From IMG/VR virus record IMGVR_UViG_3300032257_000479, positions 64,001 to 128,000 of that record: a stretch of DNA of 64,000 nucleotides; one strand, written 5' to 3'. The notes beneath the pieces were generated by a model, which had not been told where the DNA came from, made no database searches, and saw nothing but the letters and a program-made list of their open reading frames with translations. Source of the stretch: a virus. This document shows positions 6,309 to 49,398 of this stretch, one piece after another (position 1 is the stretch's first letter; each line of letters opens with the position of its first letter). A program made the translations under genes and the position numbers.

Positions 6309-6353
6309 ATTTACCTCTGCTTTATGAAAAATGACATCATGTTCAGAATATAT

Positions 6354-6381
6354 TTTTCGATAATTTCAATGAATAATCCTT
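6354..6381 (-). promoter_or_regulatory. putative phage promoter AAGG-N16-ATCGAAAA
   Basis: Recurrent motif, upstream of 6308. Confidence 0.5.
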
Positions 6382-6429
6382 GAATAATATCTATTCTATC
6401 AAGCAATGATTATAAATAGTTATCGGCAA

Positions 6430-7326
6430 TTACACTGATTCTTCGTCGCAATCGCAATCTTCTTCGTCGCAATCGCAATATTCCCAATCCCCAGATTCTT
6501 CCATTATATCATCAAATTCGCCTGCCTCAAGCAATGAATCATGCGTTGATTTGGTATCTTCGACATCGTTCTGGTCATCTTCAATGTAATCGTCATCTTC
6601 CTCGTCTCGATAAGCTTCATCAATAACTGTTACAATCTCTTCTCTCACGCACCATTCGTGACCTAGATCAACCATCCCAACTGCGGGTATGTGAGACAGC
6701 CTTTTTATTGCATCCTTTAAACCGTTATATCTTTCTCTTCTTAAACCAAGATCGCTTTGCTCAACATCTCCTGTCATTATTATTTTGGAGCCAGAACCAA
6801 GACGTGTTAGCAATAGGTGTATCTGCTTCTTTGTCATGTTTTGGCATTCATCAGCAATAACGCAAGAGTTCTTAAAAGTAACACCTCTCATGTAAGCAAT
6901 TGGTAAAACTATAATAGTTTTATCTTCTATTCTTTTCCTTAAATCATCTGGACTTAAATATTGAAGAATTATTTCATTCATTGGGAACATGTAAGGAGCA
7001 AGCTTCTGTTCTGCATCGCCTGGCAAAAAACCTAAAGACTCTCCAGCCTCAACAACAGGTCTAGTGAGAATAATTTTATCAAATCTACCGTTAACAAGCT
7101 CTTGCAAAGCCCAACCTACAGCCAAGTGTGTTTTCCCCGTACCAGGAACACCCTGAATAACAGTTACTTGTTTTTGAGAAATAGTTCTTAACGCATCTTT
7201 TTGTCCTGCGTTCATTGCTGAAACTGTAACAACTCGCTTAGATGATGATTTTTCTTTTCCCATAGTATTTTTGTTAACCTTTTTCTTTTTGGTATTATGA
7301 TTTTTGGTATTATGCTTTTTTCTCAT
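6430..7326 (-). CDS. phoH: PhoH-like ATPase
   Basis: GVPGTGKT, ILTRPVVEAGESLGFLPG, AYMRG.TF, DECQN, LTRLG, GDVEQSD. Confidence 0.95.
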   Translation of the reverse strand: MRKKHNTKNHNTKKKKVNKNTMGKEKSSSKRVVTVSAMNAGQKDALRTISQKQVTVIQGVPGTGKTHLAVGWALQELVNGRFDKIILTRPVVEAGESLGFLPGDAEQKLAPYMFPMNEIILQYLSPDDLRKRIEDKTIIVLPIAYMRGVTFKNSCVIADECQNMTKKQIHLLLTRLGSGSKIIMTGDVEQSDLGLRRERYNGLKDAIKRLSHIPAVGMVDLGHEWCVREEIVTVIDEAYRDEEDDDYIEDDQNDVEDTKSTHDSLLEAGEFDDIMEESGDWEYCDCDEEDCDCDEESV

Positions 7327-11297: not shown

Positions 11298-12356
11298 TTA
11301 AAGTACGTGAAATACTCTCCTTGGAGGGGTATTACTCCAAGTACCCCAAAATGTTGATTGACTACTTCCTTGATCAAACTCTTGATTTATTTCTGCGAGA
11401 GATAAAACTGAATCCGCTATCATGAACTCGCACATTTTGCCATCCATAATTCGAGTTGCATCACCTTTGCCGCCAAGAGCAAGGTCATCATTTGTAGTAG
11501 ATATCTCAGTTAAACCAGCAACCTCTGAAGTTGTCCCACTAAGCGCTCCATCTACAAACGATGCCATTTGAGGATTTGGGGAAAAGCCAGCATCAAAGCG
11601 AACTGCTACATGATACCATGTTCCAGTAGACAGGCTTGCATTAGCGCTATATTTTACCCCTGAATATTGTCCGCCTGAGTCTGTTACCATATAACCCATT
11701 CTGTCGTTTACTCCATTTGTATCATACCACATTCCAAAAGGACGACTCCCTCCATGATTGCCATCCCAAAGTATTCCGCCATCTGCATCTGTGTCAACAT
11801 TTATCCAAACCATAACAGTCGCTGTAGTCAATCCGCTCAGAACGTGAGGTATGTAAATACTATCATCAGAGCCATCCCAATCAGTTGCCGCTCCTGTTTG
11901 TCCTGTTGCTCCGCCCGCAGTAATGCCTCCAATAAAAGACAAAGCATCATTACCATTTGAGGTTCTATCCGTTCCGCCTGCATCTGGATAATATATTTGG
12001 AAATCGGATTTATAAGCATTATCGCTACCATATGTATCGGAAGTTGCATAGGAGGTATTTCCTGAAAATGGAGGATAAATCCTTACCGTCCTATCTGATT
12101 TTGTTCCAAGAGTTCCCGACCACTTTACCCGCAACCAGCCCGTCTCTGCTGAATCATCAAAATCAATCCAATCTGTAGCTAGTTCTGTTCCATCAGAATT
12201 CTTAGCGGCTCGGCCCTTTGTTCCGTCGCTTGTGTTTACCTTGGCCCACCATGCTGATGTCATTCTAGAAAGATCAATTAATAAAGAAAAATCAGTAAGA
12301 GCCGCTGATGGAGCTATACATGACTGCGTATCATATGTTGTTCTTGGTAATGCCAC
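11298..12356 (-). CDS. LamG/concanavalin A-like lectin domain protein with DUF2341-like N-terminus
   Basis: WDGSDDSI, TVMVWIN, TGTWYHVAV, FVDG, MDGK..E..I.D..LS..EI. Confidence 0.85.
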   Translation of the reverse strand: MALPRTTYDTQSCIAPSAALTDFSLLIDLSRMTSAWWAKVNTSDGTKGRAAKNSDGTELATDWIDFDDSAETGWLRVKWSGTLGTKSDRTVRIYPPFSGNTSYATSDTYGSDNAYKSDFQIYYPDAGGTDRTSNGNDALSFIGGITAGGATGQTGAATDWDGSDDSIYIPHVLSGLTTATVMVWINVDTDADGGILWDGNHGGSRPFGMWYDTNGVNDRMGYMVTDSGGQYSGVKYSANASLSTGTWYHVAVRFDAGFSPNPQMASFVDGALSGTTSEVAGLTEISTTNDDLALGGKGDATRIMDGKMCEFMIADSVLSLAEINQEFDQGSSQSTFWGTWSNTPPRRVFHVL

Positions 12357-12358
12357 TA

Positions 12359-14671
12359 TTAATCTCTCGTAAACTCTATTGTTATATTTATTTCATCAAC
12401 ACTTCCTGATTGAGCCGTGGTTTCTAGCCAAACCCACGATCCTGCAGGAATAGTTTCGTCATTAAAAGATGTAACCTCAGAACCAGTTGTTGTGCTTGTT
12501 GTAGTTGTGCCGCTAGTTACAACTTCTGCTCCTGTAGCGTTTCTGTCGCTATTATGGCGTATGGTCCAAGTGACTGATGGGGTAGAAGTTCCCTTTAAAA
12601 CGGCATTCATTTGAGTGACAGTTATAGCGTCATCCGTAAAAAACATTGTTACATCTTCACTCGCTCCTGGACTTTCCAATCCAATAGATTTTAAATATGG
12701 AACTACAATCGCTTCTGTGTAAAATGTTGGTCTATATGGTAAAACGTGAACAGTATTTGCATCTTCTATATAAACCAATGGATTACTATAATTGTCTGAT
12801 GGTTCAGTAGAAGTAAGCAATCCTGCTGTTATATCAGATACAAAATAATATTCTCCAACAGTTAACCCATGAGCTGTCACTGTTACTCTGCCTGCTTGAG
12901 CTAACTCGTAATCATCTGTTGCTTTTGAAACAACAATATGTGTTCCCAGCGTATCAGGATCGTCTGCTTGAGCCTTTTGCCAGTCTGATCCATCGTGGTA
13001 AACGGCATCCATAACAGCAAGCGTTGGAGAAGCTTGATTTAAATCAAATTTTACATCCGAACCGCCAGGAGCTGTTCCTGTTAGCTCTGAATAATCTACC
13101 TGCTCGCAAGTTAAAATACCTGATCCATCAGACTTCCAAACACCAGTGTCTACTATGCCTTCAGGTAATGTCCAGTACGTGTTTGCTGTTACATTGACAG
13201 GAGCCTCTAATCCTATCTCAGCGCTCCCATTATCTTGAGCTTCCCTGAAAACCATAAGACCGGCAAGTGCATCAGATGTATTTATAATTGCCGCCTTCGC
13301 CGCAAAAACAGACCACTGAGCAGTCCCTGTGAATGAAACAATATCTGCCGATACTTCTGCTGAAGAAAACACTCCAGAAATTGTTTGTCCAAAAAATAAG
13401 GCTTCTCCATCATGAGAGAGAGCTGTTGTTTGCTGAGCCCCCAATATACCTGTATGAGTTCCCCTCCAAAGACCAGAGCTTGTATCATTGACAAATGAGT
13501 GACTTGGCAATAGCTCTGTCCCATCCGCTAAAAGAATTGTATCTGATTCTTTATAGTATGTTCCAAAATCAGAAATATGACTTTCAGTTAATGGAGTATT
13601 AATCCAAGAGTCAACAGAACCCCCAACATAAACAAGAAAATCGTTATCCGAAGCAGAAGTTACTGTTATATCTGAAATATTATCAGTTGTCACAGTTCCT
13701 GTTAATTCCGAATAATCTACTTTTTCGCAAATAAGCGTTCCTGATGCATTAGACTTCCAAACGCCATCTTCTACAGAATCTGGAGGCATTAACCATACCT
13801 GGTTTGAGGACAAGGAATTAGGCGATCTTAGCCTTATTGCTGATGATCCGTTATTGGTTGCTTCAAGCAGTTCTAGCGTTCCGCCTGTAGATGATGAAGA
13901 ATTTTCAGCAGATATTTTTGCTCCAATAAATTTACAGGAGCTTGTTGTTGTTACTTCAAAGTTTGCAAGAGTCCCTATATTTACATCTGGATTTATTGCA
14001 AGATTTGGAAGCGTGCACTCTATTGCGGCTTTCCCTCCTGCGACAAAAACAATTGTATCTTGTCCAGAATAATATATTCCATTGTTGGTATCAGAAGCAA
14101 AAGCAAAGCCTGGAGCAGCTATTGTTCCATCCGCTGCAAGAATTGTGTCACCAGATTCATATCTTAAACCTAAAGCTGTATCTATTCCAGACAAGTGGCC
14201 TGAAACGTCCCCAGAAGATGGGGTATATTCTGATATGCCAAACGGTAAAGCGCTTGCTCCGGTCCCCCCTCTCAATATCCCCAATGTTCCGCTTGTTATG
14301 TCTCCTGTTGAATGACTGTGAGAGAGCGCGGCAAGGCCAGCCTCAATTGCTGTTTGATTTATCCAGTCACCTGATCCATTATCGTAAGCTAGAATCTCAT
14401 TATCCGCAGGCGTTCCGGTTATAATCACATCAGTCAAGCCATCAAGAGTTGAAGAACCGCCTGCTGGAGTTGACCAAATAAATGCGCTTGTGGCTGTATC
14501 CCATTCTAAAACTTCTCCATCAGCAGGAGTTGCAACAGGCAAAACAAGAGAATAACTTGAAGTTATTGTCGTTGGAGCGCTAACAGAAACAGTATTAGAG
14601 CCTGAATCCTCTAATACGAGAACCCCCTCATTCGTTAGCTTTATATCTGTTAAAAAATCTCTAGAAGCCAT
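12359..14671 (-). CDS. tail fibre-like protein with internal duplication
   Basis: LDGLTDV.I...ADNEIL.YD....WIN fibre motif; duplicated block ending VDYSELTGT. Confidence 0.75.
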   Translation of the reverse strand: MASRDFLTDIKLTNEGVLVLEDSGSNTVSVSAPTTITSSYSLVLPVATPADGEVLEWDTATSAFIWSTPAGGSSTLDGLTDVIITGTPADNEILAYDNGSGDWINQTAIEAGLAALSHSHSTGDITSGTLGILRGGTGASALPFGISEYTPSSGDVSGHLSGIDTALGLRYESGDTILAADGTIAAPGFAFASDTNNGIYYSGQDTIVFVAGGKAAIECTLPNLAINPDVNIGTLANFEVTTTSSCKFIGAKISAENSSSSTGGTLELLEATNNGSSAIRLRSPNSLSSNQVWLMPPDSVEDGVWKSNASGTLICEKVDYSELTGTVTTDNISDITVTSASDNDFLVYVGGSVDSWINTPLTESHISDFGTYYKESDTILLADGTELLPSHSFVNDTSSGLWRGTHTGILGAQQTTALSHDGEALFFGQTISGVFSSAEVSADIVSFTGTAQWSVFAAKAAIINTSDALAGLMVFREAQDNGSAEIGLEAPVNVTANTYWTLPEGIVDTGVWKSDGSGILTCEQVDYSELTGTAPGGSDVKFDLNQASPTLAVMDAVYHDGSDWQKAQADDPDTLGTHIVVSKATDDYELAQAGRVTVTAHGLTVGEYYFVSDITAGLLTSTEPSDNYSNPLVYIEDANTVHVLPYRPTFYTEAIVVPYLKSIGLESPGASEDVTMFFTDDAITVTQMNAVLKGTSTPSVTWTIRHNSDRNATGAEVVTSGTTTTSTTTGSEVTSFNDETIPAGSWVWLETTAQSGSVDEINITIEFTRD

Positions 14672-21629: not shown

Positions 21630-22330
21630 TATTCTTCCATATCCGATATATCTATTCCTGCATCTCTTGCGGTCTGAAAGAACTCTTCGTCTTGCGGAGA
21701 TGTTCTTCCTCTCATAACTTCATCCGTTATATCAAGAGGTTCATAATCGCCATCTTCGGTATCGTATCCTTCTGATTCAATTCTTTCTGATAACTTATTT
21801 GCTGATTCAGAAACTAAAATTGAATTCAAGTTCTTGTCTTCTAATGATTGTTTTTTCTTATTTCTAATATTAGAAACTTTCCTATACTCTTTCTTTATTC
21901 TATCGATATCTCCTTCGTCAACTATTTCTAGTTTTCCTATTTCTATGTATCGATCCAGATCCGGATAAGTGATTGCAAGGTTATCGCTATACAATTTGAA
22001 ATCTATTGGACTATCAAATATAAGAGCTTTCTCTTCTTCATTTTGATGTTTAACGATTATTCTGCCAGCCTTAATTTCTCTTATAAACTTTCTACCAGTT
22101 TTAATAACTTTTTTGTACTTTTTGCCTGTGTTTTTTGAAATCAAATCAATAATATCAGAACCATTTTTAATATCAAGGGATGTTATATATAAGACCTCTC
22201 TGGATGATATCTCATTTGCAATATCATCTATGCTATCCCATTCATATTCTCTAACTTCATTTTTGTCAATTATTCGCACAACCCTATTTGCCGCATCAAT
22301 AAAGACAATTTTCATTACAGCGTTTTCCAT
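21629..22330 (-). CDS. hypothetical protein
   Basis: 233 aa, between the two glycosyltransferases. Confidence 0.75.
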   Translation of the reverse strand: MENAVMKIVFIDAANRVVRIIDKNEVREYEWDSIDDIANEISSREVLYITSLDIKNGSDIIDLISKNTGKKYKKVIKTGRKFIREIKAGRIIVKHQNEEEKALIFDSPIDFKLYSDNLAITYPDLDRYIEIGKLEIVDEGDIDRIKKEYRKVSNIRNKKKQSLEDKNLNSILVSESANKLSERIESEGYDTEDGDYEPLDITDEVMRGRTSPQDEEFFQTARDAGIDISDMEE

Positions 22331-23715
22331 ATTTCTTTTATCCTTTCTGATGCTCTATCTGACACTGAGCTAAATGAGTAATTATCCAAAATATGTTTTT
22401 GAAGAATCTTATTGCTTAATTTAGCATCGTCATGATTGTTATAAACATTTCTCATTGATGATCCAAACCTATCTATAAAATCTTTGCTCTTTAATATTGG
22501 CATGATCTGATTGTCCCAATAATGAACCTGAGAACTCCCTGGAGAAACCTTTGCAAGTTTATCAATGTCAACAAGATTGCTGTTTTCTTTTGTTAAAAAC
22601 ATTGTATGGCCGCTATGATTTGTTGCTATAACAGGAAGACCTACTAGCGATGCTTCACAATAAGGTAATCCAAAACCCTCGCCTCTTGAAGGAAGAACAA
22701 ATGCGTCTGCTGCTTTATAGATTCTTGGCAATTCATGTTCTGGTATCACTCGACTGCATCTAGCAATATGGGCAGGATTTTCTCCGCCGTATTTTTTTAT
22801 AAACTTCTCTATTTCTGATCGAATTATATCGGACCTTCGAGAAGATTGTTGATACCTGCTAACTATCAACAATGAAACATTATCATCTCCTGAAAACTCA
22901 GTTAAGTATGATTTTAATAATGCATCATATCCTTTCCTATATCCCCATCCAAATACGCTTATAAATACAAAATCTTTTAATTTAGGTCTAAACTCATGCG
23001 GTTCATGGTTTTCATGATATATGTTCGTTTGTATGCTTGCTGGCATGATAAATATTGGTCTTGTTACACCAAATTGTTCCAAAACGTCTCTACAGTAGTC
23101 TGAAGTAACCCAAAGCTCATCATATGAATTGCAAATATCAACTGTTTGTTGAGGAACTGATGAGGCCTCAACTGTTGTGTAAAGTATTCGATAAGGCATA
23201 CGAGGGCTCATTTGCCCAAAACTGGGTATAATGCTATCTATTCGTATTGCTTTTCTTCCAACTCTCTTTTTTAAAGAATTCAACATACTAGCTTCTATTT
23301 CATTTAAATCGCTGCGCATATTATTCGTTGGAGAAACTTCTACTTTTATTCCCTTCTTTGTTAGACCAAACGCTAAATTTCTATTAACTTTTGCATATCC
23401 TCCAGCTTCGTAAAAATGTCCTTTTACGACAACTTCCGGTTCCTGTCCGCTAGGCATTCGTGGCACCTCTTCCTCTTTTTTATCATTTAAGCCTTTTGAA
23501 TCTCTTTCGCTTCTCATTTTGACTAAATTGTTTTCTATTCTACTTGATCCTATTTCAACAATATCAAATGCTCCAAAAACTAAAAACTTTTGAAAGCTTT
23601 TACTTTTTAATATATCATCCACGCAAATATCTTCAACAAGACCCTCTTCATGAGAAATGTTGCGATCAATATCTTCTAGGTAAACTGAATTTTGAGTCAT
23701 ATTTTTGAATTTCAT
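22315..23715 (-). CDS. GT4 (GT-B) glycosyltransferase with extra N-terminal domain
   Basis: RKG.D.LL..Y..EF, DAFVLPSRGEGFGLP..EA...GLPVIAT. Confidence 0.92.
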   Translation of the reverse strand: MKFKNMTQNSVYLEDIDRNISHEEGLVEDICVDDILKSKSFQKFLVFGAFDIVEIGSSRIENNLVKMRSERDSKGLNDKKEEEVPRMPSGQEPEVVVKGHFYEAGGYAKVNRNLAFGLTKKGIKVEVSPTNNMRSDLNEIEASMLNSLKKRVGRKAIRIDSIIPSFGQMSPRMPYRILYTTVEASSVPQQTVDICNSYDELWVTSDYCRDVLEQFGVTRPIFIMPASIQTNIYHENHEPHEFRPKLKDFVFISVFGWGYRKGYDALLKSYLTEFSGDDNVSLLIVSRYQQSSRRSDIIRSEIEKFIKKYGGENPAHIARCSRVIPEHELPRIYKAADAFVLPSRGEGFGLPYCEASLVGLPVIATNHSGHTMFLTKENSNLVDIDKLAKVSPGSSQVHYWDNQIMPILKSKDFIDRFGSSMRNVYNNHDDAKLSNKILQKHILDNYSFSSVSDRASERIKEIWKTL

Positions 23716-24680: not shown

Positions 24681-25559
24681 TTATGATGCGTCAGTTACTT
24701 CGATTTTAGCGATTGCGTAATCATTGATGATTGCAATACCAACTTCCTCGTAGATAACCCATCCGAGACGTAGTTTCTTCGGATCGTCTGCAGGAAGAAC
24801 TGTAATATCCTGACGGATAGGGAAAGCTCCAACTGTGTCTGGGGAAGCTACAACAAGAACTGTTGATGCATCCATTCTAGACGAAACGTGGATGTCCGCT
24901 GTCCAAAGGTGACCGTAAAGTCCGGTTGTTAAGATCTCTCTTTGAGTTGCCTCGTCGTAGAAGTCTTTGCCGAAAGTACGAATATCTGCATAACGGTTAG
25001 CATGAGCTACAATTTTAGTTGCAACAAGGTCGTGCTGCTCAATGTAACGGAAAGCGCTGTTCAAAGAAGTTGTGCTCAATGAGCCCATGTCAGTAACGAT
25101 CTGAGGATCGCCTGCTGCTTCTCTGTTGTCTGCTGCTGCAATAAGAGCGTTGAAGATCTGAGTGTCTTCTTCTTTCTGGATTGCTTCCTTAGCCTTGATC
25201 TGCGCTCTGTCTACAATGTAGAATCTACGAGCCTTGATTTCTGACAAACGAATTGTTGGGTTAGCAGCAATTTCCCAGGTAGGAACGAGAATTTCTTCTC
25301 CTTCTTGGATCTGGTCAGGAACTGCGCCTCTGCGAGCAACAACATGAGCTGTTGCAGCAAGGTCTCTCTCGTAACGAGCAAGAGCGCCCTGAGGAAGTTC
25401 GTCAACCATAAGCAATTTACGGCCTACGGCTTGGTATTCCAAAGAACGACGAATTGGCTCAACCATTGCTTGAGCGAGTGCTACGCGACCCTCATCAGTC
25501 TCAAGTGCTTGAGCGATGATTTCTTCTTTCTGACTATCTGTAATTTTTGTAAGTGCCAT
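24681..25559 (-). CDS. major capsid protein, HK97 fold, encapsulin-like size
   Basis: 292 aa; GR.ALAQAM.EPIR..L.YQ.VGRKLL.VD.LPQG, QKEED..F, G.YG.LW.A.I; strong RBS; follows protease and decoration genes; strong terminator. Confidence 0.9.
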   Translation of the reverse strand: MALTKITDSQKEEIIAQALETDEGRVALAQAMVEPIRRSLEYQAVGRKLLMVDELPQGALARYERDLAATAHVVARRGAVPDQIQEGEEILVPTWEIAANPTIRLSEIKARRFYIVDRAQIKAKEAIQKEEDTQIFNALIAAADNREAAGDPQIVTDMGSLSTTSLNSAFRYIEQHDLVATKIVAHANRYADIRTFGKDFYDEATQREILTTGLYGHLWTADIHVSSRMDASTVLVVASPDTVGAFPIRQDITVLPADDPKKLRLGWVIYEEVGIAIINDYAIAKIEVTDAS

Positions 25560-26237: not shown

Positions 26238-29200
26238 TTAACGCCTCAGGCTTGCATTTGGGTCTTCAGATGCCGCTTTATTTCTGCGGTCAAGCTGAAA
26301 CAGTCCTTGAATCTTGCTGGTTAATTCCATTGTTGCATCTTTTGCGTTGCTTGATTCAGGTATTACCAATGCTGTCTCTGATCCTTGCGCTACGGTATTG
26401 AGTCCTTTTCGAACAAATCCGAACATTGCTTTTTCCATATCCAAGATTTGCTCTGATTCATAACGCTCTAGTTCTGCAATCTTAACAGGTAGTTGACCTA
26501 CTGTTATTTGCTTAGCTTCAAGCATTCGACCAGCTACTCGGATAGCAGCTTCTTTTCGAATTGACGAAGACTCCTCATTGCTACGCGCAATGACCGTGCC
26601 TTTAATATCTTCTTGTTTCTCAGGAGCGAATCGCTCGTTTTCAGGGCCTTTACCGCCGCCTGATGGTACTTCTGGTTGATGTTCAGGGGCTTTAGGAACA
26701 GCTCCAATGCTTTCCTCTTCGTGGCCCATGAACGCTCCTGAACCATCTTCTGGAACAGAAACTTTATCGCTCTCTTCTGAAGGAGTTATTTTTGAGCCTT
26801 CAGGAGTGTTTGGGTGATCTTTGTTATTAGATATTGGTTGAATATCCTTGTCTTCGCTAACAGGTTTAGCTTCATTCAACTTTTTGTCAGCTTCAATTAT
26901 CAATCTTTCAGCAAGACCGTTTTGCGAAGCTTTTGTTGAAGCCGCCTTACTGTTACCGGCTCCTTCTTCTCCGCCAGTGTAGTCATGACCCTTTTCTGGA
27001 GTATAACCTTGATCGGCTTCTCCGCCCATAGCTGATCCGCCTGCTGGAATTGTTGGAACATCAGTTTTAGCCAGGTCCTTTGACTCATGACCCATAGTTG
27101 CTCCGGAGCTTGGTGCGTCAGGATTTTCTGCTGTAAACTTTTCTTCATGACCCATAGTTGATCCATCTGAACCAGATATTGGGTTTATATCAGAATCGTC
27201 TTGAACATTTTTCTGAACTATGCTGCTTTCTCCGGCTTGCTTTGATAGCAAGCTTGAAACTGCGGATAGATCAAGACCTACAGAATGAGACTTAGCTATG
27301 CGACCTCTTTTGTATGTCTCTGCCATGCTAGATGCTTCTTTCATCTCGTCTCCCTCTTCTGTATCTTCTGTATTCTCAGAACTGTCGGAAGATTCCTTCC
27401 TAATTTCTTCATTTTCGCTAGAAGCGAATGAATCAGACATGCTCATGCTTTCTTCTTCAGCGTTATCTTCCTCTCCATCTGCCTCAAAACCGCCAGGTCC
27501 TCCGTCAAATGGATCGTCGTCATCGCCGCCATCATCGCCTTCTCCGCCCAACTCTTCTCCGATATCTTCGGTTATATCAACGGCAGTATCTAAAGCGTCT
27601 TCGGCAACATCGCTAATCTCAGAAGAAGCGTCTTCAGGTAAACCTAATGCTTCTTCGCCAGCTTCTTCGCCCATGCCGCTGTTGTCGCCTTCGAGAGCTT
27701 GAGCAATTTCGCTATTCAGTGTATGAAGAACTTCGAGAGGCAAACTTACGTCAACAAAACCGTCTGCTCCATCTTCTGAGAATGGATCAACATTTTCGTC
27801 AAAGCCGTCGCCGCCGTCAATATCAACATTAAATTCATCGCCAACTACGTCAACGTCTTCGTTGTTGCCCATGTCGTTCTCAAGTTCATCTGATAAAAAC
27901 TCAACAACTTGAGCATACTTGGTTCTTAATTGATCGCAAACAAAGCTTGATTGCTTAGCTGTAAATCCGCCTCGAATAAAATCTTCTAGACACATGATGC
28001 AGCCATCTGGCTCCATCCAATGATTTGCAATTTTAACAACCATGTTATCGCTGTAAATGCTTGCCTTGGAAAGACGCTTGCAAACTGCATCAGCAAGGTT
28101 ACATCCTTCATCAGGTCCGCTAAGAGCTATCGCATCTTCGCCGAAACGACGAGCAATTAGTTCTCTACATCTTTCTGTTGGGAATTTATCGCCAATGCTA
28201 TATGCTTTCTTGAATTCATTGAGAGTTCCGCTTTCAACAGATGCTGTCTTAACTCTGTTAAGAAGACCCTTATTGTTCATGGCAAGAATTGCTCTACCTC
28301 TATCAGCAAGAGTCATTGAATCAAATTCTGATTCATTGAGTCCAAAATCTTTCAAAGCTGAAGCAAATGTCTTTTTAGCTCTCTTGCATGAAACGCAATC
28401 TGAAGCTGCTGGACGATTCTTCCATTCCCATTGCATGTAAAGGTCATCGCCTTTCATTGCTTGGCGAATATTGTATCTATTTCCGGTTGTAAGACAGAAG
28501 TATTCTCCGTCTCCCATAGCCAAAGTATCAGTTGATCCTGTGTATGGGCTAACGCTTCCAAGGATAATGTTCTGTGAAGCAAGTTTTTCCATTGACTTGT
28601 CTGTTATTCTAGTGAAAGCTGCAACAGGTAGTTCCTGATCCATTCCTCCATCATCGATAGCCAAACCTTCGCCTCCGAAGTCTTCTTCTGCAGACTCTTC
28701 GCCTCCATCGTTATCCATTGTTCCTGGCCATTTGAGAACTTCGATATCAATCTTCATTGAATATTCAGCTCCACAGTTATTACATTGACCTTTTCCGGCA
28801 ATTATATCAACATCATCTGCTCCACAAACAGGACATATGCTGCCTGGAGGGGAAGCTTCAAGGTCTCCGGTTCCCTCGTCTTCGAATCCTTCATCGCCGC
28901 CAGCGTCAAAGCTTTCGATTGCTTCTCCGCCGCCGTCGCCAGGAGCTGCAGGCATTGACGCTCCTGCGCCTCCGCCTTCTCCGAGACCAGCAGGCATTTG
29001 TCCGCCCATCATCTGAGCTTCTTTCTCTAACTGTTCTCTATTTTCTTTTCTTGACGCAGTTTTTTCTTCTGAATCTTCATCTGAGTCATCTGTGTTGGCT
29101 GTTTTTGTTAAGCTAAGATTAGCGAATGCTGTTTTTTCTTCTTCAGTAGCAACTGAAGCTTCTTTTACGACAGCTTCAAAAATTCCAAGCTCTGCATCAA

Positions 29201-31913
29201 CGCTTACATTTGCAACTATAATGTCGCTTGTTTCTGTTTGAGTTTGAGCGTATGAAAGGATAGAGCTAATAAAAGCTTTCTTGTCGCTTGTATCAACTCC
29301 ATTTAAATCTTCGCTAATTGTTCCGCAAATCTTATATAAACCATCATCGCTATTATCAATTTCTGCAAAAGCTTGACGGAATTGTTCAGTTTTATCAACA
29401 ACAGTTTCAACAGTCTTTGTCGAAGCCATTTTCTCTAAAGCACTCTTTTCTGATGAAGCAAGAGCAACCTTGTCATTTGCAACAAAAGCAACTGCATCAA
29501 TAAAATCAGAAGCTGAAGCAAATTTAATGTTATCTCCCATTGCTGCCAATAGGCCGTCTATAGCATTTGTTGAAGATGTTCTTCCTGCAACTTTTCCAAA
29601 ATAGCTATCTCTTTCGTTTTGAGATTTTCTTTCTGCAATTTTTGCTGGGATAGCATTAACAAGAGTGAGATAAGCTGCTTTCATTTCATGCTTAGGAGTC
29701 GCTGAGAACGCCGAAACAGCCTGTCTTACATCTGTTGGAGTCAAACCGTAGTTTGCAATCGCATCAGATACTGCATTAGAAGCTGCTGTAACAAGGGCTT
29801 TTGCGTCAAACGATGCAGCCTTCCATCTAGCGGTATCTCCGCCATGAGGAAGTGTTGATCCTTGATTCGCAAGTTGTTCTTGAGTAATAAACTCTGGGTC
29901 TACCCAACTGTGAGAATCTCTCAAGCCAATAAGTTGAGCTTGAGTTGTTGATTCTGTCCAATCTTCAGGAAGTATAGATGACACAAGACGACTCATTTCG
30001 TCCCATTGTTTCTCTGTTATAACTTCCGGGTATGAACTCCAACGTGACATTGGATATTCTTTTATTTCTTCAAGCTGAGCTTGTGTTATAAATTCATACG
30101 GAGCGTCAAGTCGAACCTGAGGAGAATCAGTAGAGGTGTTATTAGTTCTTTCAGAACCACCTATTTGATCTGCTCCTTCAGTAATCGTCTCATAATGAGT
30201 TTCTTGACGACCATGAAGTTCAAGGTTTGCTTTATCAAGCTGCTTCTGAGTAATTACCTCAGTATGCTCTTCGTTCACTCCTGAACCTGCTGCTGTTTTA
30301 TTTTCTTTAGCCATGGTTAAATCAGACTCCTTTTCAAGACTTAACAGAATTGATTGAGCGGCTTCCGTTGGATTGCTATCCATTAGGTTCCGCATGTTAT
30401 TATCATACTTATCGGCAGAAACCCAACTTACAAGTTTTGAGCCATGCCATTCTCCAACACACAATTCGCCGTTATCTGTTTTGGCTATTGCTATTTTTCT
30501 ATTGTTTAACGAAGCTTCACAGATAGTTTCTGAATTATTAGCTCGTCTTTCTTCGAATTCCAAAAGCTTATTTGCCCATTTTAGACCAACATTAACATGT
30601 TGTAGCTTCTGTTGTATCATGTTGCTTGATTCTTTTATTAAATCCTCCCCATTATCCTGAGAAGCGGCAGAAAAATTAGGACGAGTTACTGTTCCAACTT
30701 CTGGGGCAGGAGAAGATTCAACTCCTGAAACTTGAGGTTGAGGAGCTTGTTGCTGCTGTCCTGAACCTATTTGGTCAGGAGAAACTTGCTCAGATCCTGA
30801 ATCTCCATCAGCAGGAGAAGCTAACGCATCAGTCCCAAAAGCTATCTCGTTTTCGCTTGGCGAAGGAAGAGCGTTGTATCCCATCTCGATAAGCTCATCT
30901 GTGTATCCTTGCAAATCGGCCAAAACCTCAACAAGATCGCTTGCGTATTCCATATCAACTTGTTGTTTTTGAGCAAGAATTGATCTAGTAACTTTTTCAA
31001 TAAGATTCATAGCATCATTAAGTGCTTGAATTTCTGTTTTACCAGCAGTCTTCTCTATCTTATTGCCATTTATTCCGCTCTCGTACCTAGAAGCAACCTT
31101 CTTAAGCTCTCCTAATTGAGATGCCATTTTCTGTTCAATATTGCCAACATTAAGGATGTCGCAAACCAAACAATCATGACAAGCTGGATTAACAACGAAT
31201 GAATCTTCAATGAACTTTATGTCATAGTTCCATTCAAATACTTGAGCTTCTTTGTGATCAAGCATTTCTTCTGCGTCTATTTTTTTGCCTGTAAGCGGAT
31301 CATTATCTTCAGGCTTGCAATTGCTGTCGTGGTAAGCATTTTTTACTGAACCAGAAAACTGTCTAGTCTTTTGGTTTTTTACATGTGAACAGAAGTCGTC
31401 TGCTGTATGAGCTTTATTGTGACATATTGAACACAAAGAGAACCCAACTTGAGCCCCCATTGATGTTCCAGATATATAACCTTCTTGTATTCCTCTTGCT
31501 AATTGAGGATAAGCAACCTTATCAACTCTATTTATGCAATAAATGCCGCCTGCTGAATCGTCATACCAAGCATGGATAACTTTGCCTCTTGATTTTTCAA
31601 CATCATCATTTTGGTGATTAACAAATACAGGGCAATCTATAAATGTATGAGCAGCTCTTTTTAATTCGGATTCAGAAAAAGCATCTCCGTTGTCATTGAC
31701 TTCGTCTTTTTTTATAGCAAAAACTTTAACAAATAGGTGCTCTGGATTCTCTTTTGCTGCTGCAGCTATATCAAACCCATCGAGGTCTATTTTCTTTGTT
31801 TTTGATATGGATGCAAATTTCTCTAAAGCTGTAGTATTTATCGTATCCCAATTTTCTGGAACATTCAATGCCACAATTGGCATGTTATGCGAGCTTTTTT
31901 TATACATTGTCAT
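26238..31913 (-). CDS. prohead (capsid maturation) protease fused to a very long scaffold
   Basis: N.NGD.F...EL, TF...PVFVNH, G.I.GTSMG, CSIC, F.E.SFV..PA; followed by about 1600 aa of acidic repeats and a zinc ribbon (CPVC..CNNC). Confidence 0.85.
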   Translation of the reverse strand: MTMYKKSSHNMPIVALNVPENWDTINTTALEKFASISKTKKIDLDGFDIAAAAKENPEHLFVKVFAIKKDEVNDNGDAFSESELKRAAHTFIDCPVFVNHQNDDVEKSRGKVIHAWYDDSAGGIYCINRVDKVAYPQLARGIQEGYISGTSMGAQVGFSLCSICHNKAHTADDFCSHVKNQKTRQFSGSVKNAYHDSNCKPEDNDPLTGKKIDAEEMLDHKEAQVFEWNYDIKFIEDSFVVNPACHDCLVCDILNVGNIEQKMASQLGELKKVASRYESGINGNKIEKTAGKTEIQALNDAMNLIEKVTRSILAQKQQVDMEYASDLVEVLADLQGYTDELIEMGYNALPSPSENEIAFGTDALASPADGDSGSEQVSPDQIGSGQQQQAPQPQVSGVESSPAPEVGTVTRPNFSAASQDNGEDLIKESSNMIQQKLQHVNVGLKWANKLLEFEERRANNSETICEASLNNRKIAIAKTDNGELCVGEWHGSKLVSWVSADKYDNNMRNLMDSNPTEAAQSILLSLEKESDLTMAKENKTAAGSGVNEEHTEVITQKQLDKANLELHGRQETHYETITEGADQIGGSERTNNTSTDSPQVRLDAPYEFITQAQLEEIKEYPMSRWSSYPEVITEKQWDEMSRLVSSILPEDWTESTTQAQLIGLRDSHSWVDPEFITQEQLANQGSTLPHGGDTARWKAASFDAKALVTAASNAVSDAIANYGLTPTDVRQAVSAFSATPKHEMKAAYLTLVNAIPAKIAERKSQNERDSYFGKVAGRTSSTNAIDGLLAAMGDNIKFASASDFIDAVAFVANDKVALASSEKSALEKMASTKTVETVVDKTEQFRQAFAEIDNSDDGLYKICGTISEDLNGVDTSDKKAFISSILSYAQTQTETSDIIVANVSVDAELGIFEAVVKEASVATEEEKTAFANLSLTKTANTDDSDEDSEEKTASRKENREQLEKEAQMMGGQMPAGLGEGGGAGASMPAAPGDGGGEAIESFDAGGDEGFEDEGTGDLEASPPGSICPVCGADDVDIIAGKGQCNNCGAEYSMKIDIEVLKWPGTMDNDGGEESAEEDFGGEGLAIDDGGMDQELPVAAFTRITDKSMEKLASQNIILGSVSPYTGSTDTLAMGDGEYFCLTTGNRYNIRQAMKGDDLYMQWEWKNRPAASDCVSCKRAKKTFASALKDFGLNESEFDSMTLADRGRAILAMNNKGLLNRVKTASVESGTLNEFKKAYSIGDKFPTERCRELIARRFGEDAIALSGPDEGCNLADAVCKRLSKASIYSDNMVVKIANHWMEPDGCIMCLEDFIRGGFTAKQSSFVCDQLRTKYAQVVEFLSDELENDMGNNEDVDVVGDEFNVDIDGGDGFDENVDPFSEDGADGFVDVSLPLEVLHTLNSEIAQALEGDNSGMGEEAGEEALGLPEDASSEISDVAEDALDTAVDITEDIGEELGGEGDDGGDDDDPFDGGPGGFEADGEEDNAEEESMSMSDSFASSENEEIRKESSDSSENTEDTEEGDEMKEASSMAETYKRGRIAKSHSVGLDLSAVSSLLSKQAGESSIVQKNVQDDSDINPISGSDGSTMGHEEKFTAENPDAPSSGATMGHESKDLAKTDVPTIPAGGSAMGGEADQGYTPEKGHDYTGGEEGAGNSKAASTKASQNGLAERLIIEADKKLNEAKPVSEDKDIQPISNNKDHPNTPEGSKITPSEESDKVSVPEDGSGAFMGHEEESIGAVPKAPEHQPEVPSGGGKGPENERFAPEKQEDIKGTVIARSNEESSSIRKEAAIRVAGRMLEAKQITVGQLPVKIAELERYESEQILDMEKAMFGFVRKGLNTVAQGSETALVIPESSNAKDATMELTSKIQGLFQLDRRNKAASEDPNASLRR

Positions 31914-33897: not shown

Positions 33898-34341
33898 TTA
33901 CCCCTTAACGTGTCTCGGAATATCAACTGTCGCTAAATCATCAACAGTGTAATTTTGTAAGTCTCTTTTCATGGGAACTCCCCACTTCTCTGTAGCATAA
34001 GCATGAGCAGCTTTCATCGTCTTGAAGTACTCTCCATAAGGAGAATATGTCTTGCCTTCCCTTTCGCTTGGGGGAGGAAGTCTCTTAATACCTGCAAAAA
34101 ATCTTTTTCCCATACTTTTATGTATGGATGGCCCAAGAACAATATAATAATCTGAGTTCGTTGTATGGTCATGTCCCTCGTATCTTAAATATGAGCCTGT
34201 ACCTATCACCTTATCAAATTTCTCTTTCATATTTAGAGTTTTATCTTCATAAGACTCTTCCCAGCGTATGCCTCTGTCTTTAATTTTCTTCCTACCACCA
34301 GTATGTTCTGATTCTTTTTGTAGATTAAAGACTTCTTGCAT
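33898..34341 (-). CDS. hypothetical protein
   Basis: 147 aa; leader MQEVFNLQKES. Confidence 0.75.
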   Translation of the reverse strand: MQEVFNLQKESEHTGGRKKIKDRGIRWEESYEDKTLNMKEKFDKVIGTGSYLRYEGHDHTTNSDYYIVLGPSIHKSMGKRFFAGIKRLPPPSEREGKTYSPYGEYFKTMKAAHAYATEKWGVPMKRDLQNYTVDDLATVDIPRHVKG

Positions 34342-36605
34342 TATTCACCCTCAGCTATTGGACTGCTTTTTAATACACTACATTTAAACAGGTCCGTATG
34401 AACACTTGATGTTTTGTACTTATTTATAGTTGTTGCTGATTTTGAGTTCGTTTTCCTTCTTTGTTCCAGAGCCATCTGTATGTTCTCTGCTAACAAATTT
34501 TCAACTCCTGCAACATTCTCGTTCAAAGCGGTCTCTGATACCCTTATTACAGTCCAACCCATTTGAGCTAAATTCTTATCTCTATTTTGGTCGCCTGCAA
34601 CATCATCCTCTGATGAATGCCATTTCTCTCCATCAGCTTCAATGTTCAGTCCCAACTCAGGAAAAGCGAAATCTAACAAATAAGGCTGTTGTTGACCAGG
34701 GACCTGGTATTTATATTGAGCATAAATTTGATAAGGCAACCCCATGCCAGATAAGATTCTATAAACCTTAGCTTCAGGCTTTGTTAACTGAACCGATTGA
34801 GTTTTCATTGCTTCCTGAGCAGCCTCTTCTGCTTCTTTGGATGCTTTGTCATTACCTTTGCCTCTCTTAGTTACCCTCTGTGGATCAGCTCCTGCCGCTG
34901 CTGGCATTCCGCCAGGCATCGGTGCTCCGCCAGGCATTGGCGCTCCGCCTGCCATAGGATCGGCTCCCGGCATCCCTCCTGCCGCTGGATCTCCAGGCAT
35001 GCCTCCACCCATTGGTGCTCCGCCTGCCATAGGGTCAGCTCCTGGAGGTCCTCCTGCGGCTCCTCCTGGTGCTCCGCCTGCTACTGCTCCATTTGCCATT
35101 GTTTGAACTTGCTCTTCTCTAATTCTTTCTACCTCTTGATCATAATCAAGATCGAATAATTCAAGTAGCGTTTGAGTTGATATAGTTCCATTCTGATGAA
35201 GGTTCATTGCCATTTGCATTTTATTAGTAGGGTCTCTAAGTTTTAGATCATCCCATTTCATTTTTGGGTATAAATAAACTGTTTCGCCTGCAATCTCACT
35301 CTCTTCTTCATCTATGAATCCCTGCATTTTCGCAACCGGCAAAAAGATATTCTTTTCAACCCATTGCGAAAGTTCATTTCTCCATGATTCAAGACGACGA
35401 ATAAGCATTTCAACACCAACCTGAGCTGATGAATAACCACTCATCTCTCCGTTCAAAAGAGCTTGGTTAAGCATAAGCCCATCAAGTATTTCTTTTCCGA
35501 TTTGCTCTACTTCATTTGTTATGTTATGAATTTTACCTGTTGCTCCATACCATTCATATTCAAATGCATGGTGAGTAACAATTGTTAAGTTGGGATCATT
35601 CGCAACTGCACCCAATTGCTGTACAACATCAGCAATATCGTCCTCATTCGCTGGACGATTGGGTTCTCCAACTTTTACAACTCTAACAGGAAGTATAAGC
35701 CTTTCAGCGGTTATCCAGTTTGCTGTCATAAGTTTTGTCTTGTATGCCAAAACGGTAAACAGTCTTCTAAGAAGAGAGTCCCCGTAGGTTCCATATGGCG
35801 AACCGCCGTGCTTTATGTGACTTGTAACATTATTGGATAAACGAATAGGCCTTCCTGCTGCTACAAGTTTCTTTATGTTTTCTGGCAATCTTTTGTAAAC
35901 AGATTCCGGTTGTTTGGTCATAACAATTTTTTTCAACTCATCGTCAGGTAACATGACAATCTCAGGTTCGTCTGCTAACGGAGTTGTATATACTTCAACC
36001 CAATCTGGATTTAAGACCATCACTCTTTTAAATGTCCCATCAGCATGAGTGGGAGCTTCGCCTGGACCTAAATCTGTTTCGCCTCTTGTGTCAGGAGAAT
36101 CTATTTCCATAAATACGAAAACGTCTCCTAGCAGAAAGCGCTCATGACTAATAAGTCTGAGCCACTTAAACAGTTCAAGATTATCCGCCAATCTTTCATA
36201 GAATCTTGTAATATTCTTCTTTTTGCATTCCAGTTTAAATCCGTTTATCGGAAACTGTGAATAGAAATCTATACCTGCCGCAACCTTTGGCTCATTTTCG
36301 TAGTAAAATCGAGACCACTGATAAACCTCCCTTCTCTTACTAGCTATTTGCCAGTTCTGAGGAGTATGCAGCGGGGAAAAGAACATTGGCTGAGTCATCG
36401 TAACCGAAGCTCCACCACCAATAGCTTGAGCTGCTCTGGTTAAAGGAACAGATACAACATCTCCGTTACTATATGGCGCTGCAGCTCCATTTGAATTTAC
36501 TATTTTTGCGGCAGGCTTTACAACTGTTTGACCTTTCGCTGCTGCTTGAATCGCTTTAGTCTTCTTTGTTGGCATCTGCATTTTTATTGGCTTATTTTTT
36601 GCCAT
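34341..36605 (-). CDS. portal protein with C-terminal DUF559/Vsr-like endonuclease domain
   Basis: Portal core (R.YY..EP.V...ID....FP, LNPD.V, S.Y..YG.S, P.R.VK.G); Gly/Pro/Met linker; DFAFP..L.IE.DG..WH...D..RD..L...GW.VIRV. Confidence 0.85.
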   Translation of the reverse strand: MAKNKPIKMQMPTKKTKAIQAAAKGQTVVKPAAKIVNSNGAAAPYSNGDVVSVPLTRAAQAIGGGASVTMTQPMFFSPLHTPQNWQIASKRREVYQWSRFYYENEPKVAAGIDFYSQFPINGFKLECKKKNITRFYERLADNLELFKWLRLISHERFLLGDVFVFMEIDSPDTRGETDLGPGEAPTHADGTFKRVMVLNPDWVEVYTTPLADEPEIVMLPDDELKKIVMTKQPESVYKRLPENIKKLVAAGRPIRLSNNVTSHIKHGGSPYGTYGDSLLRRLFTVLAYKTKLMTANWITAERLILPVRVVKVGEPNRPANEDDIADVVQQLGAVANDPNLTIVTHHAFEYEWYGATGKIHNITNEVEQIGKEILDGLMLNQALLNGEMSGYSSAQVGVEMLIRRLESWRNELSQWVEKNIFLPVAKMQGFIDEEESEIAGETVYLYPKMKWDDLKLRDPTNKMQMAMNLHQNGTISTQTLLELFDLDYDQEVERIREEQVQTMANGAVAGGAPGGAAGGPPGADPMAGGAPMGGGMPGDPAAGGMPGADPMAGGAPMPGGAPMPGGMPAAAGADPQRVTKRGKGNDKASKEAEEAAQEAMKTQSVQLTKPEAKVYRILSGMGLPYQIYAQYKYQVPGQQQPYLLDFAFPELGLNIEADGEKWHSSEDDVAGDQNRDKNLAQMGWTVIRVSETALNENVAGVENLLAENIQMALEQRRKTNSKSATTINKYKTSSVHTDLFKCSVLKSSPIAEGE

Positions 36606-47502: not shown

Positions 47503-49398
47503 TTAATTAGACCTATTTTTCATTTGGTCAGCAACCTTTTGTCCCGAACCATAACCGTATGGCGTTCCTTGCATAGATCTCCAAACCTGATTACCACTAT
47601 TTGGTGATACTGGCATATTGACCATTTTTCCTTGAGGGAGTTTGCTTATAGTTCTATCTATTGCATTAAAGCATGCTCCTGCAACTGCATCGCATATATC
47701 GTCTGAATTCACATCCGCATCAACCTTCGGCAATACCTTATACCCATTTTCTGTCCATTTTCTTTGCAAATTCTTCATTTCATGGTATAATAATTTATGT
47801 TCCGGTATTAATATTTTTTGATTTATAACTAATTGATAAAAATTATCATATATCTGTTGCTTATAGCTTCTTGAGAATGGAGTCTCTTTCGCTGGAACCC
47901 CATTTTTTCTCAAATTGTTAACACTAGCCTTACTATTCCATTGATCATATGTAACTAATCCAAAATGGAATCTCTTATGCATCTCTATCATATAGTTATC
48001 AATTTCTTGCACATTGATTGGATTATCACCAGTTGGTGTCCAATAATGAATATGATCCATTATTATTCTAAAATCTCTTTTTCCAGTCCCGCTATTAACA
48101 AACATCTCTTGATGACATATCGCTAAAGCATAATTGTGACTAGATGTAGCAGGGTCCAAGTGAGCAAAGTATGTAACGCCTGGAAGCCCATGCATCACTT
48201 TTTTTACTCTCTTTGATCTAAAGCATTTTTCAACATCATCTGCTGAAAAGAACGATTCGCCTGCAGTTCCTGAGAACTCCGCTCCAAACTCCATCGCAAA
48301 CTTAGTGTCGCTCATGTTGGAATATTTTTCAAGAAGCATACTTTCAGTAACTCTCGGGTTAACGACCCAAGTTGGAGCTTTCATCATAAAAGCTGTGCTA
48401 TTATCAGGAGCTTGGATGTAAAGGTCAAACAATATGCCCTCTTTGCCACGGGGTGTTGAAATACATATAACCTTACCGTCAATTATTCGTTTTATGACTT
48501 TTTCTCCGTCACTATCAAGTTCAGGTTCACCCTGATCATCAAGAACTTCTACTTGTCTAATGTAAGTCATCGTAGCAGGAACAAGGTTGTGATAGAGTTG
48601 ATCGCCAGAAGAAGATCCCGCTGACTGCTTATATGTTCCGATTTCATCAAACAAAACAGCAAAACAAGAAAGACCAACAAGTGAGTTCGAGTTTGAGTGA
48701 CCGGCAAAAATCTCAACAGAACCATGATTCTGTGTTAAACCTTTTTCTTTTAATATTTCGTTATTCTTTTTGTCTTCTGGTGTTCGCAAAAATATCTTAT
48801 TATCTGTTGAATGGCCTATTTTGTCCGAAAAATATGGAGACTTATTTGCTTTATCCTTTATCTCTCTAAACAAAATTTTCGCCTGACCAGAAGAGTTAGC
48901 TATAGTAAGTATAGTTATAGGAGAAGCGGAACCAATTTTATATGTTGCATAAGGGTCTCCTCCTGGAGTTTCAAGAAGCCTCATAGCTTCATATAATGCC
49001 ATAATGGAAACGATAAAGTCTTTACCTGATCTTCGTCCCCAAATAAGAACAAGCTCGCTGAAAATTTCTTTATTCTCATACTTTTTGAGCATTCCGCCAT
49101 TATCATCTTCATCTAGCCCAAAATCTTTTATTAACTGTATCTCTTTTTCGTCTAATTCTAAATCCTCATTTCCTGGACTGCCTCTGTAAAAACATTTCAG
49201 CAATATCTTCTGCATAGGAAAAAGAGTTATTGGTTGGGGATAGTATTTCATCCCTAACCATTTTTCATCTTCAATAAACTCAATGATACTAGGAAGGTTG
49301 TCGCTAAAACTTTTACTTATATTATCAGCTTTAACTTCATCTTTTAGATTACGAAGTAGTTCAGATAATTCTCCAGATTTTATCTTTTTCTTTGCCAT
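47503..49398 (-). CDS. terL: terminase large subunit
   Basis: Walker A GRRSGK, Walker B VLFDE, ISTP, E.GAEF, RNase H-like HLDPA and DD.CDA. Confidence 0.93.
   Translation of the reverse strand: MAKKKIKSGELSELLRNLKDEVKADNISKSFSDNLPSIIEFIEDEKWLGMKYYPQPITLFPMQKILLKCFYRGSPGNEDLELDEKEIQLIKDFGLDEDDNGGMLKKYENKEIFSELVLIWGRRSGKDFIVSIMALYEAMRLLETPGGDPYATYKIGSASPITILTIANSSGQAKILFREIKDKANKSPYFSDKIGHSTDNKIFLRTPEDKKNNEILKEKGLTQNHGSVEIFAGHSNSNSLVGLSCFAVLFDEIGTYKQSAGSSSGDQLYHNLVPATMTYIRQVEVLDDQGEPELDSDGEKVIKRIIDGKVICISTPRGKEGILFDLYIQAPDNSTAFMMKAPTWVVNPRVTESMLLEKYSNMSDTKFAMEFGAEFSGTAGESFFSADDVEKCFRSKRVKKVMHGLPGVTYFAHLDPATSSHNYALAICHQEMFVNSGTGKRDFRIIMDHIHYWTPTGDNPINVQEIDNYMIEMHKRFHFGLVTYDQWNSKASVNNLRKNGVPAKETPFSRSYKQQIYDNFYQLVINQKILIPEHKLLYHEMKNLQRKWTENGYKVLPKVDADVNSDDICDAVAGACFNAIDRTISKLPQGKMVNMPVSPNSGNQVWRSMQGTPYGYGSGQKVADQMKNRSN

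Follow-up and report, generated by a model that had tools for sequence, protein, structure and literature searches.

A portal gene that continues into a nuclease domain

The giant phage considered here is uncultivated and marine, and one of its genes encodes a portal protein that carries a nuclease domain at its C-terminal end. The gene was analysed within a stretch of 64,000 nucleotides (the window), which comprises bases 64001-128000 of the 169.5-kb IMG/VR record IMGVR_UViG_3300032257_000479, a record whose completeness CheckV estimates at 25%. It lies on the minus strand, as do all other features of the window named below, at 34341..36605, and encodes a product of 754 residues that matches phrog_16240 and exceeds the Pfam cutoff for DUF559. 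The reading frame is open and in frame throughout, and passes from a portal core (residues 85-505; 35091..36353), with wing, stem, clip and crown regions and a last crown helix at residues 488-504, into a disordered linker of Gly, Pro, Ala and Met (residues 506-586; 34848..35090). The linker ends with a basic junction motif, K580-R-G-K583 (34857..34868) and is followed by a nuclease domain of the DUF559/Vsr fold and EDxHD type (residues 605-721; 34443..34793). A C-terminal tail (residues 722-754; 34344..34442), which starts with K722-S-A-T and contains a predicted beta-hairpin at residues 729-750, completes the protein.

An initial annotation, made from the sequence letters, had proposed an in-frame fusion of a portal with a DUF559/Vsr-type nuclease and had placed the domain at about 34460-34790. 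The open reading frame, the portal profiles, the Pfam DUF559 match and the predicted fold all bear this out, and the folded domain covers 34443-34793. We regard the architecture of the protein, its fixation across a clade of phages and the integrity of its catalytic site as genuine with high confidence.

The portal core and its flexible tether

Portal profiles cover residues ~46-505 of the protein (phrog_16240, E 1.8e-43; phrog_2833, E 4.6e-14), and the Pfam family Portal_Mu falls just short of its cutoff (21.1 versus 23.9 bits). In an AlphaFold2 (AF2) model based on 85 homologs, the core reaches a predicted local distance difference test score (pLDDT) of ~90, and a Foldseek search with this core recovers 146 solved structures at E<=1e-3. 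All matches listed are portal or neck proteins, among them those of Pakpunavirus, HFTV1, lambda, T4 (gp20) and G20c. The gene is also part of a head module, together with terminase, maturation protease and major capsid protein. The protein is a genuine tailed-phage portal, and the giant phage that encodes it is a relative of Bacillus phage G. Within the core, more than 90% of the family possess a zinc-ribbon-like insert, CPxC...CNH, at residues ~170-187 (~36045-36098 in the window); the protein studied here reads SPDT...PTH at these positions, and its metal ligands have apparently been lost.

Behind the crown, at residues ~506-586, the pLDDT falls below 50 and the GC content rises to 0.60, compared with a background of ~0.38. 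This linker consists of in-frame, imperfect tandem repeats with periods of 12, 18, 24 and 27, as detected by TRF. Across the family it measures between 75 and 204 residues and is composed mainly of G (38%), P (13%), A (12%) and M (12%). In the junction motif at its end, the K and the G are invariant among 13 close relatives, and a motif of the form K[RK]G[KSRN] is found in 134 of 230 homologs.

Fold, family and active site of the nuclease domain

The nuclease domain is modelled at a pLDDT of ~90-92. Its DUF559 (PF04480) score lies above the Pfam cutoff of 20.6 bits, both for the whole protein (31.3 bits) and for the domain alone (34.8 bits), and so provides the profile-based confirmation that the initial annotation had suggested as a check. 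The best structural match in Foldseek is the catalytic domain of I-Bth0305I (3r3p; TMt 0.84), followed by the DUF559 protein 3hrl (TMt 0.75), with further matches to the Vsr-like domains of PvuRts1I/AbaSI and to Escherichia coli Vsr (1cw0; probability 1.00). A profile built from 13 relatives likewise matches 3hrl (E 1.5e-5) and 3r3p (E 3.7e-5). The Vsr family proper (PF03852) misses its threshold of 27 bits, with 16.3 and 19.2 bits. The structural zinc site of Vsr is held by a cluster of Cys and His ligands, and since residues 605-721 contain no cysteine, a Vsr-type zinc site is missing here. Further searches gave little: PADLOC returns only weak matches, to the mREase_II restriction model, a homing-endonuclease model and PDC-S37; T4 gp4, when searched with the nuclease profile (hmmsearch), gives no meaningful score; and Pfam finds no NUMOD or helix-turn-helix (HTH) recognition module in the protein, in which the domain is preceded just by the low-complexity linker.

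The motifs D..E.DG..WH and D..RD, described earlier as intact, are indeed present as D645-F-A, E656-A-D-G-E-K-W-H663 (34617-34640) and D672..R675-D676. Alignment to Vsr, 3r3p and 3hrl identifies the catalytic residues D645, E656, D658, H663 and D676 (34578..34673), which correspond to D51, the F62 position, H64, H69 and D97 of Vsr; for the nuclease lineage of I-Bth0305I, this composite set has been described as the EDxHD motif (PMC3239194). Among the 216 family domains that are not interrupted, D645 and H663 are present in every one and the full set of five residues in 210. The possibility that the domain is catalytically dead, which had been named as a potential refutation, is ruled out in the sense that the catalytic residues are conserved. 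We conclude, on the grounds of sequence and modelled fold, that this is a Vsr-fold domain of the DUF559/EDxHD type which is predicted to be catalytically competent.

Inteins typically occupy constrained functional sites. In ~14 relatives, an intein of ~350-400 residues lies within the active-site motif itself, between E656 and D658 (E|C...HN|C-D-G-x-x-W-H), which is a separate indication that the active site is under constraint. More generally, inteins are concentrated in the portal gene of this clade, with recurrent sites near residues 90-105, 120, 345-360, 385-400 and 655; 110 of the 127 relatives of >=880 residues contain large insertions (one to four each), and the longest protein has 3003 residues. 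The portal gene in the window is free of inteins. In an unrelated viral contig of ~100 kb (IMGVR_UViG_3300045988_145915; 4687-6714, plus strand), DUF559 (residues 513-578) is nested in an intein whose Hint region spans residues 276-371 and whose splicing region extends to residue 631, which indicates that other environmental viruses use the same fold as the homing endonuclease of an intein.

Two other identities were considered for the domain and rejected. No Hint or intein family in Pfam matches the portal-nuclease protein, in agreement with the earlier statement that intein signatures are absent, and nothing portal-like follows the nuclease, so that the domain is not part of an intein. A polymorphic toxin of the MuF/gp7 kind was rejected because no MuF family in Pfam matches and because the same C-terminal domain recurs in 230 of 267 relatives.

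Distribution and inheritance of the fusion

When 267 collected relatives were scanned with a profile of the nuclease domain, it was found in 230 of them, on contigs of up to ~0.5 Mb; a fusion unique to this contig, the other refutation that had been envisaged, is excluded. A word-indexed search retrieved 541 relatives, and the best 120 of these (51-87% identity; from Tara, JGI, ENA, Logan and NCBI, on contigs of up to 515 kb) all contain PF04480. An exhaustive search with the core alone yielded 1478 relatives at E<=1e-3 among representatives of clusters at 50% identity, and of the best 150 representatives 114 carry the domain. The non-carriers are either fragments, owing to contig ends or frameshifts in the linker, or outgroups with a core identity of <=37%. 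Down to a core identity of ~38%, all intact portals possess the domain, and the most distant carriers stand at 38-39%. Conservation in relatives had been suggested as a check, and the fusion proves to be fixed across a deep clade.

One of the relatives is a complete genome of 488,051 bp with terminal repeats, which encodes the same gene and is collinear with the record across the whole structural region. Among the 50,697 GenBank phage genomes in INPHARED, a portal-DUF559 fusion was not found and portal matches end at residue ~489; the domain alone matches just three genes there, all of them for homing endonucleases. An artefact of assembly or gene calling, or a recent insertion restricted to this contig, might be suspected because the GC-rich and repetitive linker is prone to errors and several relatives are frameshifted within it (P0174, P0202, L046:1135-4354). 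The same in-frame architecture is, however, shared by over 200 independent proteins, which stem from many samples and many assemblers, and recurs in the complete collinear genome of 488 kb, which makes such an origin wildly improbable.

A search for split or stand-alone forms turned up no genuine split fusion, and its short matches all start in the Gly/Met linker or stem from frameshifted portal genes. Public gene calls contain many spurious stand-alone "very-short-patch-repair endonuclease" proteins, which arise from Met codons of the linker or from frameshifts in its GC-rich repeats. Full portals of the clade are named "very-short-patch-repair endonuclease", "hypothetical" or "portal" in the databases, and the first of these, a JGI label, is a misnomer.

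The closest named relative of the core is gp14 of phage G (Donellivirus gee, a phage of Bacillus/Lysinibacillus; 648 residues, 11833-13779), with 31.6% identity over residues 58-487. This protein, which has been detected in virions (PMC12484599), shares the canonical portal fold and a long Gly/Pro-rich C-terminal tail of ~100 residues, but has no nuclease, and its tail ends after a short K-I-A-S segment; the portals of the clade, in contrast, bear the 117-residue Vsr-fold domain at the end of the tether. As phage G has the tail without the nuclease, the tether appears to predate the nuclease domain.

The sequences also carry a signature of purifying constraint and common descent. Close pairs differ at a nonsynonymous proportion (pN) of 0.011 versus a synonymous proportion (pS) of 0.62, with dN/dS at 0.008-0.03, and the pairwise identities of core and nuclease are correlated (r = 0.87, Mantel p 0.001). 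Together with the presence of a single DUF559 copy per genome, both in the 169-kb record and in the complete 488-kb relative, this correlation points to vertical co-inheritance and not to independent mobility. These data bear on the idea that the domain is a selfish homing endonuclease, a free-standing EDxHD gene which became fused in frame and still acts chiefly for its own spread, by cutting the portal genes of related, co-infecting phages that have no such domain. Such an idea is suggested by the best structural match, the I-Bth0305I catalytic domain, by the homing-endonuclease labels of the PHROG, PADLOC and phage-genome matches, by the intein-nested DUF559 of other viral contigs, and by the propensity of the clade's portal gene to host mobile inteins. 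Homing, however, requires empty sites, and none are left in a clade in which every intact member, over a range of ~38-87% core identity, has the domain; the domain co-diverges with the core, occurs once per genome, lacks the NUMOD/HTH modules that give I-Bth0305I its specificity (PMC3239194), shows none of the degeneration expected of a fixed homing endonuclease, and has a dN/dS of 0.01-0.03. We therefore give this explanation only a small chance.

Lys-x-Ala sites and the fate of the nuclease in the prohead

Two sites of the type Lys-x-Ala had been pointed out as flanking the domain, and their meaning depends on the protease that matures the head. The module encodes a polyprotein of 1891 residues (26238..31913; phrog_18299, E 1.5e-11; phrog_2774, E 2.2e-32), with a head-maturation protease domain at its N-terminus. 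In this polyprotein, K-x-A occurs 38 times, compared with an expectation of 11.9 +- 3.05, which amounts to an approximately threefold excess, while K-x-G is depleted (1 versus 9.9 expected) and K-x-S is neutral; the [AGS]-x-E motifs of T4/phiKZ-type proteases show no enrichment there. The extended form K-x-A-[S/Q] is concentrated in the head block (24000-47500), with 31 occurrences versus 5.7 expected, whereas the rest of the record has 15 versus 16.3 expected. K-x-A is accordingly a candidate for the cleavage code of the maturation protease, as far as motif statistics can suggest it.

Across 230 homologs, the distribution of these sites around the nuclease is asymmetric. At a distance of at most 12 residues from where the nuclease ends, 82% have a K-x-A, compared with 40% expected from shuffled sequences, and 56% have a K-x-A-[S/Q], compared with 7% expected; at the junction of linker and nuclease, in contrast, only 12% have a K-x-A where 39% are expected. 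The two flanking sites of the window, SKEAE (K590) and SKSAT (K722), are therefore both present as claimed but differ in standing, since the family conserves only the position of SKSAT, and SKEAE is a non-conserved exception. The tail that follows K722 is variable, with a pairwise identity of only 23% among homologs; its hairpin (residues 729-750) is modelled at a pLDDT of ~91 in the full-length AF2 model. If K-x-A is indeed the cut site, the family would have been selected for the trimming of this variable tail and against the severing of the nuclease from the portal. There are two further sites of this type. The disordered N-terminal ~57 residues contain a second conserved K-x-A-Q near residues 54-60 (consensus TK.AQ in 50 of 85 sequences), which suggests a possible N-terminal trimming, and the window's protein reads T-R-A-A-Q there; and the K-I-A-S in the tail of phage G gp14 raises the possibility that a C-terminal K-x-A-S site is older than the capture of the nuclease.

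Two functions had been put forward for the fusion, a ring of tethered nucleases for the quality control of packaging and a nuclease that is released by the prohead protease and delivered as cargo. Applied to the present protein, cargo delivery of the kind envisaged for T4 internal proteins and for MuF-fused toxins would mean that the protease cuts between linker and nuclease and that a free nuclease of ~15 kDa is ejected with the genome and attacks host DNA. The head-maturation protease encoded nearby, the K-E-A-E at residue 590 of the window's protein, between linker and nuclease, and the semi-conserved basic junction motif with the acidic stretch behind it would all fit such a release, for which toxins fused to MuF/gp7 offer a conceptual precedent (PMC5576092, PMC3482391). 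The family as a whole contradicts it, with K-x-A depleted at the junction and conserved behind the domain. Nor is K-R-G-K likely to replace the missing site, because the depletion of K-x-G in the protease-scaffold polyprotein shows that Gly is not an equivalent residue, and the T4-type [AGS]-x-E motif is not enriched either. In addition, the C-terminal domain lacks polymorphism of the MuF-toxin kind, and a pathway of DNA modification by which the phage's own genome could be spared did not emerge from a check of two families, which returned a bona fide ThyA (412 bits), no TGT/DpdA and hence no sign of hypermodification within that scope. Release as cargo is accordingly disfavoured, and we consider it improbable. 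The avoidance of K-x-A before the nuclease and its retention behind it favour a nuclease that stays tethered to the portal, insofar as the deduced cleavage code holds. The ring of tethered nucleases is in this respect the better of the two proposals. A proposed role in the quality control of mismatched or branched DNA would be awkward, since the terminase, at which branches stall, lies outside the capsid and the end of the portal that bears the nuclease lies inside.

Neighbouring genes

Directly downstream of the portal-nuclease gene lies a conserved gene for a protein of 147 residues (33898..34341), whose ATG shares bases with the stop codon of the portal gene (TAATG). It occupies this position in all 12 relatives that have sequence there, with 49-67% identity and an invariant GHD.TT..DY block, and its product is better conserved than the nuclease domain. 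Neither Pfam nor PHROGs nor the ESM Atlas contains a match to the protein, and the phage G locus lacks the gene. A complex prediction for the nuclease domain and the 147-residue protein scored 0.00, a value that weighs neither way.

The large terminase (631 residues; 47503..49398) is relevant since a portal-borne nuclease might substitute for a missing terminase nuclease. This candidate explanation was rejected, as the terminase matches its profiles through the C-terminal domain (phrog_2, E 1.2e-28 over residues 116-590; phrog_2699 over residues 452-580). With the C-terminal domain present, the portal nuclease is an addition and not a replacement. The segments HLDPATS and VTYDQWN of the terminase, read by eye, resemble what we take to be terminase nuclease motifs. 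The terminase is seen only by PHROG profiles; Pfam (E<=0.01) and a query with the phage G terminase miss it. The module further includes the major head protein (24681..25559; phrog_2522, E 3.7e-67), and a group-1 (GT4) glycosyltransferase (PF13692, E 2.7e-14; 22315-23715) is encoded beside the capsid genes. In phmmer searches, whose sensitivity is limited by the use of single sequences, no homologue of T4 gp4 or gp2 emerged from the 488-kb relative, and none of gp4 from the record.

A proposed built-in enzyme at the portal vertex

Our preferred reading, held tentatively and at slightly less than an even chance, is that the domain is a domesticated nuclease which acts as a built-in enzyme of the portal vertex, with a limited role in processing or holding DNA at the crown. 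The nuclease most likely derives from the homing-endonuclease catalytic modules that are common in these phages, and would have been captured once, at the end of a pre-existing tether, to be inherited vertically from then on as a working part of the portal. We infer its interior location, its retention on the mature portal, its nuclease activity and its substrate along the following lines. To our knowledge, the side of the crown helix faces the capsid interior in all solved portals. In T4, green fluorescent protein on the C-terminus of gp20 ends up in the prohead interior (PMC10893049). Given this conserved topology, twelve tethers should arrange twelve nucleases about the inner opening of the channel. 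We predict that the maturation protease cleaves at the conserved Lys-x-Ala that follows the nuclease and takes off just the variable tail, so that after prohead maturation the nuclease would remain attached, with up to twelve copies per capsid. These nucleases would meet the DNA end which enters first and leaves last, and their role would be to process or hold DNA at the portal to a limited extent and probably with low turnover. A precedent for an additional virion nuclease is T4 gp4, a DNase of the restriction-endonuclease fold that is required for packaging (PMC7824862).

Several considerations weigh against this reading. The clade has no cultivated member. An active nuclease next to DNA at ~500 mg/ml should be dangerous, so that a restraint on its specificity or turnover must be assumed, and the families checked (ThyA, TGT/DpdA) give no indication of a hypermodification that could shield the phage genome. 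The K-x-A code itself derives from statistics, and the K-E-A-E at residue 590 would allow release in this particular phage, even if its relatives avoid it. The closest solved structure, finally, belongs to a homing endonuclease, so that an origin or role of the selfish kind has still to be reckoned with.

Another reading is that the Vsr-like fold serves chiefly as a clamp which grips DNA, for example to anchor the leading genome end at the crown and to prevent knotting of a 0.5-Mb genome, with cleavage that is minimal or limited to a single turnover. Vsr itself binds its product tightly. In T4, moreover, the top of the portal retains one end of the DNA (PMC10893049), and a clamp would explain how a nuclease fold coexists with packaged DNA. 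Pure binding, however, needs none of the catalytic residues, and the metal-binding D645 and the general base H663 are invariant in all 216 domains, with the full set in nearly all of them; we consider a non-cutting clamp unlikely, to about the same degree as release as cargo.

A more specific version of the built-in enzyme, to which we assign a low probability, though not as low as that of the clamp, is a pro-nuclease whose activity is inhibited by the tail and which becomes active in the prohead, to capture and process the leading genome end. Here, the variable C-terminal tail would keep the domain harmless in the cytoplasm, and the prohead protease would cut it at Lys-x-Ala only after the portal has been sealed in the prohead. 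Twelve activated and tethered nucleases would then handle the leading end of the ~0.5-Mb genome at the crown, in a step that might be obligatory for the packaging or the orderly ejection of very long genomes. We know of no studied phage that carries out such genome-end processing with its portal.

Significance and comparison with known systems

Portals are regarded as passive, non-enzymatic rings. In this clade of giant phages, which is large and environmentally widespread (more than 100 clusters at 50% identity, and genomes of up to ~0.5 Mb), a conserved enzyme is built into the portal, and our literature searches for a portal-DUF559 fusion found no paper describing one. If the domain is active within the capsid, a DNA-processing step would take place where the packaging channel opens into the capsid, and the coexistence of a nuclease with densely packed DNA would become a question in its own right. 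In practical terms, the fusion is a ready-made marker of the clade, corrects a systematic misannotation of portals as Vsr, and represents a natural case in which a fixed copy number of an enzyme is loaded into a capsid.

With the EDxHD homing endonucleases (I-Bth0305I, 3r3p) and DUF559 proteins (3hrl), the portal nuclease shares its catalytic fold and the same composite set of residues (PMC3239194). Unlike the EDxHD homing endonucleases, it has no NUMOD/HTH modules, is situated outside introns and inteins, and is fixed and vertically inherited instead of sporadic. E. coli Vsr (1cw0/1vsr) also has the fold, and its D51, H69 and D97 have equivalents in the portal nuclease, which differs from Vsr by an acidic residue at the position of F62 and an Asp at that of H64.

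Toxins of the MuF/SPP1-gp7 type similarly involve an enzymatic or toxin domain that is carried into the capsid on a portal-associated head protein (PMC5576092, PMC3482391). In the present case, however, the carrier is the portal itself, a single conserved domain stands where those toxins have a polymorphic repertoire, and the distribution of sites argues against release. Accessory packaging nucleases are also known from cos phages, whose packaging modules encode HNH endonucleases, such as HK97 gp74, together with terminase and portal. These differ from the portal nuclease in their HNH fold and in being separate proteins that assist the terminase outside the capsid.

In T4, finally, the virion-associated gp4 and endonuclease VII, which binds gp20, are examples of additional, non-terminase nucleases that operate at the portal vertex, or together with it, during head morphogenesis. 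They are separate proteins without detectable similarity to the portal nuclease and act from outside or in trans, whereas the portal nuclease is a covalent part of the portal, with a fixed stoichiometry and a predicted position on the interior side. The protein described here is a portal that gained an enzymatic domain, and its nearest functional counterparts are these separate, portal-associated nucleases of T4.

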